Positions 1 to 6,289 of a stretch of DNA of 34,429 bases are shown here, in pieces. The translations under genes and the position numbers were made by a program. Origin of the DNA: Asterionella formosa (taxonomy: Eukaryota); contig NKIB01000223.1 of assembly GCA_002256025.1 (NCBI GenBank), forward strand, positions 1-34,429, read 5' to 3'. The notes beneath the pieces are model-generated. The model was not told the DNA's origin, made no database searches, and saw only the letters and a program-made list of their open reading frames with translations. The first letter of the stretch is position 1; every line of letters starts with the position of its first letter.

Positions 1-591
1 CAAAAGTGCAATGAAACCATTCCTGCTCTGATCGAACTGTAAAGTAATCGACTTGATCTGTTTTAGAAGCCAAAAACAATCGTTGTTGGCAGTCTTGTCC
101 TTGTAGTCATCGTGCGTTTTGACCTTTACCTTCATGTCATCACTACACTGGCCCCAAATCACTGTTGCTAGGTTGCTCTTCAGGGTATGATTGCGCTTGA
201 CATACGCTTTTACTTCTTCTGCGAAAATCATTTTCATGGTCAGTCCTGCATCGTCATCTAGGTCATCTGGCATGTCTACCACGGGAACCGCCATGGTGTT
301 GGCAAACAAAGGGGCAAGGTCTTAAGAGTACTTCAGTGTTTTCCTCACATATCCGTCTAGAACTTCTAACGTTTTGGCGTACTGGCGTCTGTCACTTTGT
401 TCTTCATAGCATTCAAATACATTTCCGTTCATGCCCTCTGTGCTGCCCTTAAAAATGCCACGGTTGTTGCTTGTCGCTTGTGTCCTTGCCCGGCCGCCAC
501 GGCTCCCGCGCGGACGGTTGACCCTTCGCCCGGTGCTGCCGCGTCCACTCGCTAAGCTGCCGCTTGTCGTTGCGTCTGGGGTGGCGCTCAT
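1..591 (-). pseudogene. Gag N-terminus of a diatom Copia-type (CoDi-like) LTR retrotransposon; in-frame TAA at 322-324; runs off the left edge
   Basis: ORF 322..591 (RG-rich start, FKGSTEGMNGNVFEC...QYAKTLEVL) continues in the same frame past the TAA as DLAPLFANTM...LATVIWGQCSDDMKVKVK...NDCFWLLKQIKSITLQFD, which resembles diatom Copia gag. It lies directly downstream of a TG...CA LTR. No pol is in the window, so the Copia call rests on gag/LTR resemblance. Confidence 0.8.
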
Positions 592-735
592 GGGGTTCGT
601 TGGTTCCTTGATTGGTGGCTGCGGCCTTCAGCTGTGCTACTCGAATCTATAAAGTGTTCAAAACTTCGATTGAAATGTCGAAACTCCAGCCTTCCATGTG
701 AATGGCTGTTCCTTTTGTTTTATTTTATTTTATTT

Positions 736-749
736 TTATCTCGAAACAA
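736..749 (-). promoter_or_regulatory. Primer-binding-site position of the element, non-tRNA type (TTGTTTCGAGATAA), complementary to the element's own LTR
   Basis: Directly follows the LTR terminal CAACA and lacks the TGG expected for pairing with a tRNA CCA end. Its reverse complement occurs in the LTR at 882-896 (1 mismatch) and in the second LTR copy at 1365-1379 (perfect). Confidence 0.65.
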
Positions 750-1104
750 TGTTGTAACAACAACCATATTCGACCGTATCGTAGGCCTTGAACCTAGTAG
801 TACTGTGTTAATCGAATACAGTTGATGAAATTGATAGCAACGAGGAAGTTGTCAAACTTAAACTTTCACTTTACTAACTGGATTGTTTTGAGATAATGGT
901 CTCGAAACACTCTTATTACTCACATTGCATTTTAACATTTTTTCCTGACCTCTGATTGCTTTTCCTTGCGTTGTGCCTTTTACCACGTCAGCCCAGGTAA
1001 ATCTTGGTAGCAGCTGTACGGTTTTAACTGTAGTACTGTTCTCTCTCGTGTCTACTATACCCTTCACGCCTGTCCTGTGGCAGTCAGCTCGCATTTTTCC
1101 AACA
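750..1104 (-). mobile_element. 5' LTR (355 bp) of the Copia-like element
   Basis: TGTTG...CAACA inverted termini (tgttgtaac at 750, ttccaaca ending 1104). Upstream of gag. Its 3' part is duplicated at 1233-1508. Confidence 0.85.
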
Positions 1105-1233
1105 GTACCGGCACACGCACAGGATTTCAGGATCAATGATGCTGTACCGTATTATTATTAGTCGACTTATGCTGACCACGGCGTTGCTTGTTCGCTCCCT
1201 TAGATATCAGATACAGTTCCCGGCAATTCAATG
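1105..1233 (+). repeat. Duplicated copy of the CBP20 upstream/5'UTR segment (1661-1790), ending exactly at the copied ATG
   Basis: gtaccggcacacgcacagg...ggcaattcaatg occurs at both 1105-1233 and 1661-1790. There are 2 mismatches in the first ~89 bp and more divergence in the last ~40 bp. Confidence 0.9.
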
Positions 1234-1508
1234 TTAAAACCGTACAGCCGCTACCAAGATTTACCTGGGCTGACGTGGTAAAAGGCAAAACGCAAGGAAA
1301 AGCAATCAGAGGTCAGGAAAAAATGTTAAAACGTAATGTGAGTAATAAGAGTGTTTCGAGACCATTATCTCGAAACAATCCAGTTAGTAAAGTGAAAGTT
1401 TAAGTTTGACAACTTCCTCGTTGCTATCAATTTCATCAACTGTGTTCGATTAACACAGTACTAGGTTCAAGGCCTACGATACGGTCGAATACGGTAGTTG
1501 TTACAACA
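1233..1508 (+). mobile_element. 5'-truncated LTR copy in inverted orientation relative to 750-1028
   Basis: Near-identical reverse complement of 750-1028 (scattered substitutions, one 3-bp indel), ending ...gttacaaca at 1508. Explains the twin ORFs 858..1136(-) and 1188..1403(+). Confidence 0.9.
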
Positions 1509-1787
1509 AACAGTGTTGTCATTCTAATTTCTGTTGAATCTCACAGCCAGAAATTTGACACCCATCAAAATAGTGCTGTTATATTAATATTCGGCGTAAT
1601 AAATATACTCTTTATATTATGTATTATAATATATCATATGATATATACCCAAACGAGGTGGTACCGGCACACGCACAGGATTTCAGGATCAATGATGCTG
1701 CACCGTATTACTATTAGTCGACTTATGCTGACCACGGCGTTGCTTGTTCCCTTCCTTTTGACATCATATCTAGTTCAAGGCAATTCA

Positions 1788-2420
1788 ATGGAGGTTCAAA
1801 GCATGCTGCCTCCACCCATGATGGCTGCTGACTTGCTCTTTGCCAACGCTGAAGAGAAGAAGCTCTATTGGGATCGATCTCATTACGACTCACCAGAGGC
1901 ACAAATCAGAGCTCTCGCGAAATCAAAAACGCTGTACATTGGCAATTTGGCCTTTTCCACTAGATCTTCTCACATAATGGCGCATTTTGGTTTGGTCGGG
2001 CCCGTCAAGAAGGTGCAAATGGGCCTGGATCGCTTTCGCAAAACGCCCTGCGGATTTTGCTTCGTCGAGTATGTCTACCGAACCGATGCCCTCTTCGCAG
2101 TGGCCAACCTATCTGGGACGAAGTTGGACGGTAGGATTATTCGGGTGGAGCTGGATGCCGGATTTCAACCCGGCCGTCAATATGGACGTGGCCAATCGGG
2201 AGGGCAAGTGCGAGATGATCGGCGTCAGACAGTGGATCCGGCGAGGTCTGGCAAGTTGAAGTGGGTACCACCTCAAATAAAGACCGGGGAGTTTTCGCAT
2301 TATGGACCTGCTGATGCTGGAAATACTAAACGAGAGCGTGAGCATGACGACGATGGTGACACTAATATGGATCAGCCTCTCAAGAGTGGGAGGTACAGGG
2401 AAGGTGAAGGTACTATGTAA
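1788..2420 (+). CDS. NCBP2: Nuclear cap-binding protein subunit 2 (CBP20), RRM protein, 210 aa
   Basis: YWDR...TLYIGNLAF (RNP2), KTPCGFCFVEY (RNP1), LDGRIIRVELDAGF..GRQYGRGQSGGQVRD are CBP20 hallmarks. Start at ATG 1788 (M51 of ORF 1638..2420) is inferred; the upstream extension is not CBP20-like. Confidence 0.95.
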   Translation: MEVQSMLPPPMMAADLLFANAEEKKLYWDRSHYDSPEAQIRALAKSKTLYIGNLAFSTRSSHIMAHFGLVGPVKKVQMGLDRFRKTPCGFCFVEYVYRTDALFAVANLSGTKLDGRIIRVELDAGFQPGRQYGRGQSGGQVRDDRRQTVDPARSGKLKWVPPQIKTGEFSHYGPADAGNTKREREHDDDGDTNMDQPLKSGRYREGEGTM

Positions 2421-2954
2421 CCAGGATACTGGTATTTGCATCTAGTGCCTACCGTATTATAGGTATATTCATTTGTGTCATCCTTCCACCTGAATGTGTG
2501 AAGACAAAGTGTGTCACAGAATTAAATGATTACAACTGTAGTCTCAGATAGCAGGGCGGAACAGAAAAAGAAATTCAAAGGTAGGTTTTCGCAGCTGAGA
2601 GTGAGATTGGAAAATCAGTACCCACAATAGTGGTATTGAGAAACAAGTGTACAATGCATAATTCATGAAGAGTGCATGCTTCAGATTTGTCCATTTCATC
2701 TCAAGGTTGATGCTTTCATAGTAGTACGGAGATATGGGCATGAATTTCGACAAGTCTTTGGCTGCTATTGAGGAGTTAAGTGGATTTAAGGCTTTCATAA
2801 AATTATTGTAGAAATGGAATAATCTACTAGTCTTGAGCAATCCGGTAATCAAGTCAGAGAAGAGACTTTCCACAAGCAGGGGGTACAAGTGGAAACAAAA
2901 ACAGTATGTGGGGTAAGGAGGAATTGGGTTGAACCAGAATAATGAAATAAACAT

Positions 2955-4145
2955 TTAGATACCTTGTTGAGCAGGAATCGGAGCATTCCATCCATCACAG
3001 CCAAGTTCCAAAGTGACCTTGATGTAGGGCTCGGTCCTTCTAGCAATTTGAGTAAAGTATAAAGGCATGAGAGCAACCAACAGCATCCAGATGCGATCAG
3101 CTAGATGAAATAAACGAAACCATGTCGCAGATAGAATGGGTTTGGTATGGTCGTGGTTGGAAAGGATAATGACGCAGCTGTAAATCTTGAAAAAAGTGAC
3201 ATATACAATGCAGGCCAAGTAGAAGTAGCTTCCAATAGCTGTTCCTCTTTCTCCAAGGTATGGATATGAGACCCGTGTTGCAAGAATGTAGAAAACATTC
3301 TGGAAAGCGACTAGAATGAGACAGAATTGCATTCCAAAGAATCCGAGACTGTGCCCGACGACACCAGGCGGCATTATGTTATGATAGGGTGGCTCATAAA
3401 CTGGTGGAGGCATGTTTACCTGGTAGACAAAGATCATTCTAAACCAGGCAATAAGAAGAATCTTGATTGGAAGAGTATAAAGGGCAAACCGATGGAACAA
3501 AGGCTTATCATTCATGAAGTAAAGGCGCGTTTGGATGTAGTCAAAGATCACGTAGAAGAGGAAGGAATACTCAAAGAGAGGGTAAAACATGGCTGTGAGT
3601 TCACGGCTGGGAGTATAGTCCCAGAAAGCACAAATCTGCGAGAACGAAATATCATGCAAGGAGAGGTGCGTGAGGAACGTTGCACACCAATGTTAGTTCC
3701 TGACAACGAGGCAATAAACTTACATTGTTAAATCCAAACGTTTTCATCAGATCTGAATTTTTGATTATTTCCGGAGGTATGAATCGCTTGGTAAATAAAA
3801 AGGCTAGAAGGCACATAATCCAGAATGTCACATATGCAATGAGGCGAATAGATTCGGAATGAACAGGAATGACGACAGAATCTGGATGTTGCGGTTGTCG
3901 GACATTAGCAGTTTGTTGGCCTTTGAGGAATCTTCCGAAACAGCCAAGTCCTGCTTCTGGCTCCTGGACTACCGGTACGCCGTCGACGGCGTTCGAAATA
4001 GTATCGTAATTTGAACTAAAAAAGAACAACAATTGTAAGTGCTAATTCCAGCGTTACAATAGATTTCACATTCGTTGTACTTGCTTATATGATAGCTTCC
4101 GAGAAAAACATCAACAACCCAAGTAACAACGCACCTTCTAAACAT
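2955..4145 (-). CDS. Uncharacterised multi-pass membrane protein, spliced: exons 4145-4135 (tentative), 4015-3724, 3635-2955
   Basis: Intron 3723-3636 (GTAAGT...TTCTCGCAG) joins ORF 3652..4032 to ORF 2955..3659 in frame (…TFGFNN|ICAFWDYTPSRE…). About 6 hydrophobic segments. An acceptor at 4016 and a phase-compatible mini-exon MFR-S with a GTGCGT donor at 4134 are tentative. Confidence 0.75.
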
Positions 4146-5013
4146 CTAAACATCAGCCCATCAAAGTATAGAAAGCTTTCTTATCACGCATTACGGGTAC
4201 GTTGAGAAAGCTAGGAGTACCCGGTACTGCACGCACTGACAAGATAGTAAATTTGGTTACGATGTTTTGATTTCCTTCTGGTGTCGTCGACTTTCCAGAG
4301 AACAATTATGACGACCAACGGTACGACCAGCTCGACCGCGTTGGTACCAGTACAGTAGTGAAAACAATTGTCTGTACATGCAGGGTGCACCGCACAAGGG
4401 CCACGATAATTGCAAAGGCTGATGACGGACTGTCGATGCGCGACTTGCTGTGTTCACAATAGCAAGCGCTCTTCCACGACAAGGGTAAAATTTGGCTCGT
4501 TTTCTTGATATACCACACAATTGCCTTCAATGATGCGAAGACGGTTTTGAGCCATCAACTCGACATCACGGCCATGATTATGATCGCGTGAACATTCGAT
4601 TGGATTGCATGACGTACATGGTACCAGGTCCCAGGGGACCTTTCTTGTATCGTGCGTGATCGACTCAAAATTAAAATTGGATGTCCCTTCTTTTGTTGTC
4701 ATTCTTGTGCACATGCAACATTTGCCGCATTCGTATTTGATTGTTTTAGCCTTTTTGTCCTATGTATACGGTGTATTTCTTCGTCACACCCTGAATTTTA
4801 GGTCAAACCGACACCCTAATATATCGTGATTACAAAACGCACACACGCGAATGACGTCTAACGCGGGCGGACCACACCCATCCATACCTAAGACAGAAAT
4901 ACTGATGATATATTGCAGGAGGACAAATATTAGTTTGTCCCTATTACACAGACAATTTGTAACTTACTACTCCGTCACTTCCCATCACTTCAATTCAACC
5001 TCTACCAAACAAT

Positions 5014-5163: not shown

Positions 5164-6289
5164 TAAAATATTTTTGGTGAACTTATATTGTTCCCTGTTC
5201 TAGCTTTACCATGATGTTCATATCAGCAAGCAAGAAGAGAACAAAGTCTACAAAGTTTTCTTGGGTTGTAAGAATATATGAGAAATAAATCTCCGAGATT
5301 ATGAAATCACCTACCTTCTTCATCTCTTGAATCAGAAAGCTATGAACTGGAATGCTGCCAAAATTTGCGAAGAGATGAAGGATTTTAAAATCGAAATGAC
5401 AGTGATCAACCCCACATTTGGCATTGCTTAATTGGCATCATGAAACAATATTATGTTAGCTAAGAAAACACAAGAAGCTTAGGATTTCACTTTTTTAGGA
5501 TTTGGTCAAAACAGGAGTGGAAAGAGTGGGGAAAAATTCGACTCTTGATATAAAAATTCTTGACCAAGCATGTTTTTTGATAATTTCAACTTCAAGTGGC
5601 TTTGGTATTTGTCAATGCAGTGCAGATGCTCTCATACCATATATTTTACAACACTAGGTTCATCAAATAAACAATACCCTGGAGCAGTAGTAGTATGTAT
5701 ATACATAAAAAAAATATATATATATAATTTCACAGGAATTCTATGAAGCTTTTAGTTATATTTTCTGGTACCTGGTGGTTCGACTACTTCACAGTGTTCT
5801 ACTCTGGACAGAGAAAACCTCAGACGAGCAAGGTATGTATTGGTCAATATTTATGTGCTCACTACAAAGTACAAACCACTGCGAATTTCTAGTCTGTAGA
5901 TTACCATATTTTATCTTTTTTGGGAGAATAAAATAACGTGAGATCATACCGGTTTTCTACCCAAGAGAAAAAATTGGATTAGTAGGGTTGTTGGCAGTAG
6001 TATTTTTCGAAAGATCTACTTAAACCATACATAGAACAAGAACCACCATACCATCACCCACTATTGTTGGTAAAGGCACACATACTGGCTTTTGGCTTGT
6101 ATTTCCATTGTGCATCAAACATTTAAATTAAAAAAGAAATGAAAGAAATTTCAAATACAAACAATTTGTTGAATCTGCCCATATGTTGTGCAATCAATGT
6201 TTTGGTGATGCAGTTCAACTTTGCACTACAGAACAGATTTAATTTCCTACATCCAAACTGTACTTCCAAACGGATTACTATACATTTTG

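Follow-up and report, generated by a model that had tools for sequence, protein, structure and literature searches.

A family of diatom LTR retrotransposons of the Ty1/Copia type most likely begins reverse transcription by Tf1-like self-priming, a reading in which the start of transcription, the RNA cleavage, the priming step and the re-templating of the primer site are inferred. The window (the whole 34,429-nt stretch of DNA analysed here) contains the 5′ portion of one such element, a dead copy marked by a stop codon in gag and a decayed base in the primer. Directly behind its 5′ LTR lies the primer-binding site (PBS; arm 2), which is complementary to a segment inside the LTR, the proposed self-primer (arm 1); a PBS-like copy in U3 (arm 0) precedes arm 1 (Table 1). 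The comparisons below directly support the pairing and its location at the edge of the LTR, its retention and covariation among relatives, the order of the Copia domains and the presence of an initiator-like motif.

Architecture of the window copy

The 5′ internal portion of the element occupies positions 1–749 (minus strand) and continues beyond the left window edge. Its gag fragment, read from 591 to 1 on the minus strand, contains a single in-frame TAA (322–324) that is private to the window copy; in contigs assembled from RNA libraries, position 324 is C, giving a GAA codon, in all four of the runs compared. The 5′ LTR measures 355 nt (750–1104) and not the roughly 280 nt of a preliminary description. 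This extent follows from homology: both LTRs of the relative L001, at 98–450 and 5452–5804, are homologous to the window's 5′ LTR, homology to L001 and L002 reaches 1104, and the RNA-library contigs part from the window sequence exactly at that position. The earlier, shorter estimate arose because the comparison had used a second LTR copy (1232–1508), about 96–97% identical to the 5′ LTR, from which the first 76 nt are missing.

Table 1. Coordinates of the element and of the second LTR copy in the window
Feature	Position	Strand	Remark
gag, N-terminal part, running past the left window end	1–591	−	95% identical to the N-terminus of polyprotein P0001
Untranslated A-rich leader, PBS to gag ATG	592–735	−	Same leader in L001, L002 and L004
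Arm 2 (PBS), sense ATTGTTTCGAGATAA	736–750	−	Base 750 is the final A of the LTR
5′ LTR, 355 nt, TGTTGG...ACAACA	750–1104	−	By homology to both L001 LTRs and RNA-library contigs
Arm 1 (proposed self-primer), sense TTATCTCAAAACAAT	882–896	−	One CpG-decay mismatch, at 889
CCA immediately 5′ of arm 1	897–899	−	In the place of the relatives' Inr-like TCA; predicted start at 896
Arm 0, PBS-like copy in U3, sense TGTTTCGAGA	900–909	−	10-bp hairpin with arm 1
Second LTR copy, inverted relative to the element	1232–1508	+	Without the first 76 nt of the LTR and without the following PBS
Arm 1 in the second LTR copy, TTATCTCGAAACAAT	1365–1379	+	Exact match
Arm 0 in the second LTR copy	1352–1361		

A host segment of about 129 nt is present twice, at 1105–1233 and 1661–1790 (91% identity); its first copy adjoins the start of the full 5′ LTR at 1104/1105, and the two copies bracket the truncated inverted LTR (1232–1508) together with 152 nt of AT-rich sequence. 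The segment lies just upstream of a gene that, judged by eye, we take to encode a nuclear cap-binding protein subunit 2-like protein. The duplication could stem from a rearrangement, a second insertion or the assembly of two haplotypes.

Assignment to the Ty1/Copia type

A Pfam search of the window's gag fragment matched no family. The fragment shares 95% identity with the N-terminal end of P0001, a polyprotein of 1642 aa, and has 81 longer relatives; the only homologs that carry an organism name come from the diatom Fragilaria crotonensis. An RVT_2 reverse transcriptase (RT) occupies the last third of pol in P0001, in the L001 ORF and in L064, which belongs to the most distant clade (PF07727, E = 8.5e-19, 9e-19 and 1.4e-21, respectively). 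A zf-CCHC knuckle is present in P0001 and L001, and the LTR ends, TGTTG...AACA, are of the TG...CA type.

The integrase was not detected by sequence, either with Pfam at E up to 10 on P0001 or in the PDB with a polyprotein profile, which returned CCHC-knuckle matches only; in the ESM Atlas, rve and SH3_retrovirus appeared as minority labels only, which we treated as a lead. The polyprotein alignment does contain the D,D35E spacing, with invariant D580, invariant D637 and near-invariant E673. An AlphaFold model of L001 nt 2328–3260 (core pLDDT 85–95) matches the integrase cores of HIV-1, BIV and RSV (E about 3e-7, probability 1.00). In L001 this fold (2328–3260) lies upstream of the RT at about nt 3985–4690, which gives the Copia order. 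The RVT_2 RT and the modelled integrase N-terminal to it thus support a family of the Ty1/Copia type, as the preliminary description had proposed. Membership of the Tf1/sushi clade of Ty3/Gypsy is excluded by the same two features, an RVT_2 RT and an integrase before it.

In L001, coding sequence reaches into the LTR itself. The 1698-aa ORF of L001 extends 248 nt into the 3′ LTR (5452–5699, corresponding to window 858–1104, minus strand) and ends at a TAA 30 nt past arm 1, so that the whole of U3, arm 0 and arm 1 are also coding; if transcription starts at arm 1, R would therefore be at least 45 nt. The TWADVV motif of the ORF tail is retained in the polyprotein alignment, and in the majority clade a similar TYASILKKG appears, by eye, to be encoded at the same LTR position. 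The interval between PBS and gag also varies, from about 90–150 nt in the other lineages to 395–526 nt in L005, L008, L009, L011, L012, L015, L016 and L024. In L008, L009, L012 and L024 it holds an additional ORF of about 130 aa which, by eye, has a coiled-coil-like N-terminus and a conserved C-terminus of the form ...GDRV.I.....TW.A..N...

Pairing between PBS and LTR

On the minus strand the LTR terminates in ...GTTACAACA; the sequence then continues as TTGTTTCGAGATAA and lacks a TGG. The 15-mer TTATCTCGAAACAAT, which is the complement of the PBS and is found as such at 736–750 (plus strand), recurs exactly at 1365–1379 (plus strand), on the sense strand of the second LTR copy, and with one mismatch at 882–896 (minus strand), within the 5′ LTR; at up to one mismatch, no further match exists in the whole 34,429-nt window. 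The observation from which this work departed, a 15-nt complement of the PBS within the LTR and no TGG, therefore stands in both its parts, exact at 1365–1379 and with one mismatch at 882–896. By our own arithmetic, an exact complement of the 15 nt behind the LTR would be expected inside a 355-nt LTR by chance about 1e-6 times.

The single mismatch, at 889, is a CpG-to-TpG change private to the window copy. The undecayed C is present in the contigs of all four RNA-library runs and in L001, L002 and L004. With one private CpG decay and a perfect pair in the other copies, the window copy is thus a slightly decayed member of its family.

By the features covered here, the PBS does not resemble a tRNA complement: none of the PBS types starts with TGG, and the arm 1 variants contain 1–4 G/C per 15 nt, unlike segments of cytosolic tRNAs. 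Rfam, at E up to 1, matched no family, tRNA included, in window positions 1–1700, and neither the window nor 60 of the loci, a very small sample, contain a tRNA gene. These results bear on the alternative that, as in Drosophila copia, Ty5, Osser and Bianca, the PBS pairs with a half-tRNA or another internal tRNA segment, in which case the LTR copy would be incidental. Such priming is established in several Copia lineages and, in the passages of PMC6317226 on which we draw, the PBS of half-tRNA-primed elements (copia, Ty5, Osser, Bryco, Bianca) corresponds to an internal segment of tRNA-Met or tRNA-Ile; like the diatom site, it does not start with TGG. The diatom PBS, however, differs between lineages, at 8 of 15 positions, and each type is matched by its own LTR. 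Together with the low G/C content of arm 1, the absence of a tRNA-like Rfam match and the lack of tRNA genes in this small sample, this variation makes a half-tRNA primer very improbable.

Conservation and covariation among relatives

The comparison rests on 80 metagenome loci picked by gag protein similarity alone, so that their selection was independent of the PBS. Four of them represent the window's own family (85–93% amino-acid identity), and the remainder are 35–57% identical. In 67 loci the sequence upstream of gag was at least 200 nt long, and in each of these we searched for the best inverted pair of 15 nt whose arms are 85–145 nt apart. A 15/15 pair was found in 36 of these 67 upstream regions and a 14/15 pair in another 12 (L032, L034, L044, L056, L062, L063, L064, L067, L073, L076, L077 and L013), at the same place throughout and with a gap of 90–132 nt. 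Among 64 coding control regions of the same size, the best score was 12/15, and none reached 13/15.

The 19 unpaired loci comprise four contigs that begin within the LTR (one of which, L070, reached 14/15 on scoring by hand), seven truncated or recombinant copies with no LTR or PBS upstream, and eight decayed or disrupted sites. Arm 1 carries point changes or indels in L029, L051, L052 and L069, and L060 and L065 carry deletions. In L033 (3840–3890) and L035, which come from different metagenomes, about 40 inserted nt interrupt the PBS and leave arm 1 intact; the two look like a defective subfamily that was nonetheless copied or inherited.

Perfect pairs fall into seven types by arm 1 sequence: TTATCTCGAAACAAT, TTCTCTTGAAACAAT, TTAAATAAAAACAAT, TTATCTTGAAACAAT, TTACCTTGAAACAAT, TTCTTTTCAATTAAT and TTCTTTTTGATTAAT, the last being the majority type with 28 loci. 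We assembled a covariation alignment of 19 rows, consisting of the window and, from the 48 paired loci, all non-majority types and 11 hand-picked majority-type rows. Across these 19 rows, pairing holds in 99.3% of alignment cells. Both-sided changes occur at 8 of the 15 base pairs and one-sided changes at none, and there are no G–U intermediates. When the partner was slid by 1–3 columns, only 42–56% of cells paired, a control that is partly circular because the helix had been found in those same sequences. Independent support comes from the order of discovery: the window first defined the helix, and relatives selected by protein then proved to carry it at the homologous position. RNAalifold predicted the same 15-bp helix de novo. 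A perfect 15/15 pair is also present in L001, the only one of the ten loci with at least 4.8 kb downstream whose gag-pol ORF (1698 aa) is intact. With 48 of 67 loci at 14/15 or better and seven covarying perfect types, the PBS/LTR pairing has the conservation and compensatory change that the preliminary description looked to as its check.

These counts also weigh on the possibility that the pairing has no function and arose by chance or as a by-product of the palindrome formed by arm 0 and arm 1. Such a palindrome, with the motif inside it, is indeed present in the LTR of the window's clade. Yet the pair is also kept in clades that lack arm 0, it is retained in 48 of 67 loci against none of 64 controls at 13/15 or better, and about 1e-6 such matches are expected for the window; we regard a functionless pairing as hardly credible.

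The imperfect pairs are not spread evenly. Single mismatches fall at PBS positions 1–5 in nine of ten distinct arm combinations, seven of them within the PBS arm itself (P = 3.6e-4 in a post hoc binomial test against an even distribution). Positions 1–5 adjoin the LTR end, which corresponds to the 3′ end of the primer, and the mismatches may be errors made at the primer/DNA junction during copying. At the opposite limit, the pairing is longer by 4 nt in L014, where an insertion after the PBS matches the 4 nt before arm 1, and by 1 nt in each of L043, L066 and L080. Extensions of this kind would be expected if the PBS were copied from a primer whose start is at times displaced slightly upstream.

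Position at the LTR edge and predicted start

Arm 2 starts on the last A of the LTR (...AACA) in every case, and the LTR ends were checked in loci with both LTRs present (L051, L063, L064, L073 and L001). In the accepted scheme of LTR-element replication, minus-strand synthesis begins at the U5 edge. Any primer must therefore anneal to arm 2 and hence resemble arm 1, and it is mainly because arm 2 sits at the LTR edge that we prefer priming to a purely structural helix.

At arm 1, TCATT occupies positions −3 to +2 in 42 of 48 loci; three loci, those of the window's family, have CCATT there, and three have another sequence. Kadono et al. (PMC4686930) proposed TCAH+1W as a diatom Inr-like motif. 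TCATT fits this motif, which would assign +1 to the base that opens arm 1. All lineages share one 5′ limit of pairing, apart from the extensions in L014, L043, L066 and L080. Motif and limit together lead us to predict that transcription starts at window position 896 (minus strand), where arm 1 begins.

In an RNA running from this predicted start to the PBS, the 15-bp helix closes a structured R–U5 domain (z = −6.7 in L001 and −4.3 in L017). Contigs from 4 of the 21 RNA-library runs listed span the internal 3′ end, U3–R–U5 and the beginning of gag; these are assembled contigs, in which transcript starts are hence not visible, and the contigs of the four runs contain no joints or poly(A) loose ends. 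The ends of metagenome contigs within R–U5 are scattered, with no pile-up at arm 1.

A well-folded domain closed by the helix would also suit a purely structural role, in packaging, dimerisation, translation control or strand transfer, with a host RNA priming nearby. Long-range pairings of the 5′ leader are used by retroviruses and by Ty1, and priming as such is not observed in the present data. Against this reading, arm 2 begins on the last base of the LTR, where the primer must anneal, and no second PBS-like TGG site follows arm 2. A host primer would moreover need to shift in step with at least seven pair types, and eight pairs that vary on both sides with no G–U fit templated copying better than selection for structure. 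We consider an exclusively structural helix unlikely, though less so than a half-tRNA primer, and favour self-priming.

Proposed course of self-priming

In the mechanism that we propose, transcription would start within the LTR on the opening nucleotide of arm 1, directly after the initiator-like TCA or CCA. The 5′-terminal 15-mer of the RNA would then fold back across about 115–130 nt of R–U5 and pair with arm 2. Cleavage of the RNA after the paired segment, at a conserved site between AAT and CC, would release a 3′ end able to prime minus-strand DNA synthesis. Finally, the plus strand would copy the attached RNA primer and so re-template the PBS from arm 1, which would hold the two drifting arms strictly Watson–Crick complementary. 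The chemistry of cleavage and priming is assumed here by analogy with Tf1.

A PBS-like copy upstream of the predicted start

In the window's clade, arm 0 lies just ahead of the TCA or CCA and forms a hairpin with arm 1; in the window it also appears as a three-mismatch match to the 15-mer at 897–911. Arm 0 tracks the lineage-specific differences of the PBS in L001, L005, L011 and L015 (with one mismatch in L015), is degenerate in L013 and is absent from L010, L016 and the majority clade. We looked for an equivalent in the majority clade, defined by TTCTTTTTGATTAAT, and rejected the candidate: the resemblance in U3 is weak and does not compete in folding, so that arm 0 is specific to its clade.

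With 30 nt of upstream sequence added, the minimum-energy fold places arm 1 on arm 0 and leaves the PBS free. For self-priming to work alongside the arm 0 hairpin, transcription would have to begin downstream of arm 0, at the near edge of arm 1. The modelled folds suggest that arm 0 may mask arm 1 wherever priming would be unwanted.

More tentatively, and as a possibility that we hold to be less probable than its opposite, arm 0 could act as the decoy of a built-in switch, combined with a record of priming in the PBS re-templated at each cycle. In such a scheme, a free primer would be carried only by RNAs whose start lies at the initiator that separates arm 0 from arm 1. In read-through RNAs, in the 3′ copy of R and in plus-strand strong-stop DNA, arm 1 would be locked in the hairpin, a state that would guard against mis-priming and snap-back. 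The record would be written by the RNA primer, which would re-template the PBS every cycle; this would account for the Watson–Crick covariation, the 1-nt and 4-nt extensions and the clustering of mismatches at PBS positions 1–5.

Arm 0 also marks a boundary between sequences. In run X1, two RNA-library contigs share R–U5 and arm 0 with the window and are unrelated to it upstream of arm 0 (909), which suggests a subfamily with a different U3, joined exactly at arm 0.

Relation to known systems

Self-primed reverse transcription is described for Tf1 and Tf2 of S. pombe, Tj1 of S. japonicus and the Tf1/sushi group of Ty3/Gypsy elements in the passages of PMC4600332 on which this comparison is based. 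As far as these passages go, the diatom family resembles the Tf1 group in having a PBS right after the 5′ LTR that is complementary to an LTR segment taken as the mRNA 5′ end, and a folded R–U5 between the two arms; the Tf1-group PBS is without tRNA complementarity, and the diatom PBS is without a TGG start. Unlike the Tf1 group, which is of the Gypsy type with RT before integrase, the diatom family is of the Copia type, with RVT_2 and integrase before RT. The paired segments differ in length, 11 nt in Tf1 and 15 nt in the diatom family. A further difference, confined to the window's clade, is the PBS-like decoy just upstream of the proposed start.

Within Copia, self-primers have been predicted for the TAR lineage of plant Ty1/copia elements (Houba, Osr-1), according to parts of PMC6317226. 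The novelty that the preliminary description implied for self-priming in Copia was therefore overstated. The TAR elements, as presented there, share with the diatom family both the superfamily and a PBS predicted to be self-complementary and not tRNA-complementary. They differ in their hosts, which are land plants, and we met no covariation analysis in the passages of PMC6317226 that concern them.

In fungal GalEa Copia elements, a Conserved Hairpin Site takes the place of the PBS. As described in the relevant passages of PMC5445492, this site lies just downstream of the LTR and consists of a palindrome of 9 bp, which includes the last A of the LTR, and an adjacent hairpin; its authors found no complement in the LTR. 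To judge by these passages, GalEa and the diatom family have in common a Copia element with no tRNA PBS and a conserved non-coding structure at the PBS position. A site of the GalEa type was rejected for the diatom family, in which the site is non-palindromic and its partner lies 90–132 nt upstream in the LTR.

Searches of the openly accessible full-text literature returned no report of self-priming in diatom elements. In the main text of Maumus 2009 (PMC2806351), tRNA and priming are never mentioned and the lone 'PBS' denotes a buffer; the corresponding parts of Benachenhou 2013 (PMC3601003) and of the Cyclotella genome paper (PMC7466962) mention no diatom self-priming.

The family described here would extend self-primed reverse transcription to a stramenopile Copia lineage, the prior Copia case being the prediction for plant TAR elements, and its comparative support, with seven covarying pair types, is unusually clean. 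To our knowledge, self-priming has so far been demonstrated only in Tf1-type Gypsy elements. Our results suggest that self-priming is of multiple origin or old within Copia, and either case bears on an idea under discussion in parts of PMC3601003, namely that self-priming was the mode of the earliest LTR elements.

An intact member, L001, and the presence of the family in RNA libraries offer a possible experimental system in diatoms. There may also be consequences for annotation. For Cyclotella cryptica, annotated with LTRdigest, LTR candidates were retained only if they had a PBS, according to passages of PMC7466962; pipelines of this kind may drop the diatom family if their PBS detection depends, as it generally does, on tRNA complementarity.

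Further structural observations

Three minor features of the relatives concern the LTR and its borders. The 3′ LTR of L073 (12785–13196) contains a tandem duplication of R–U5, from approximately arm 1 to the LTR end, whose units meet at an ATTCT microhomology between the end of U5 and the start of arm 1. The whole L003 contig and the RNA contigs of X2–X4 are circularly permuted, running from the internal 3′ end through the LTR and PBS into the 5′ leader; possible causes are the collapse of LTRs during assembly, elements in tandem or 1-LTR circles. Immediately before the LTR, both clades share the purine-rich GAGGAGCG, which is likely the polypurine tract.
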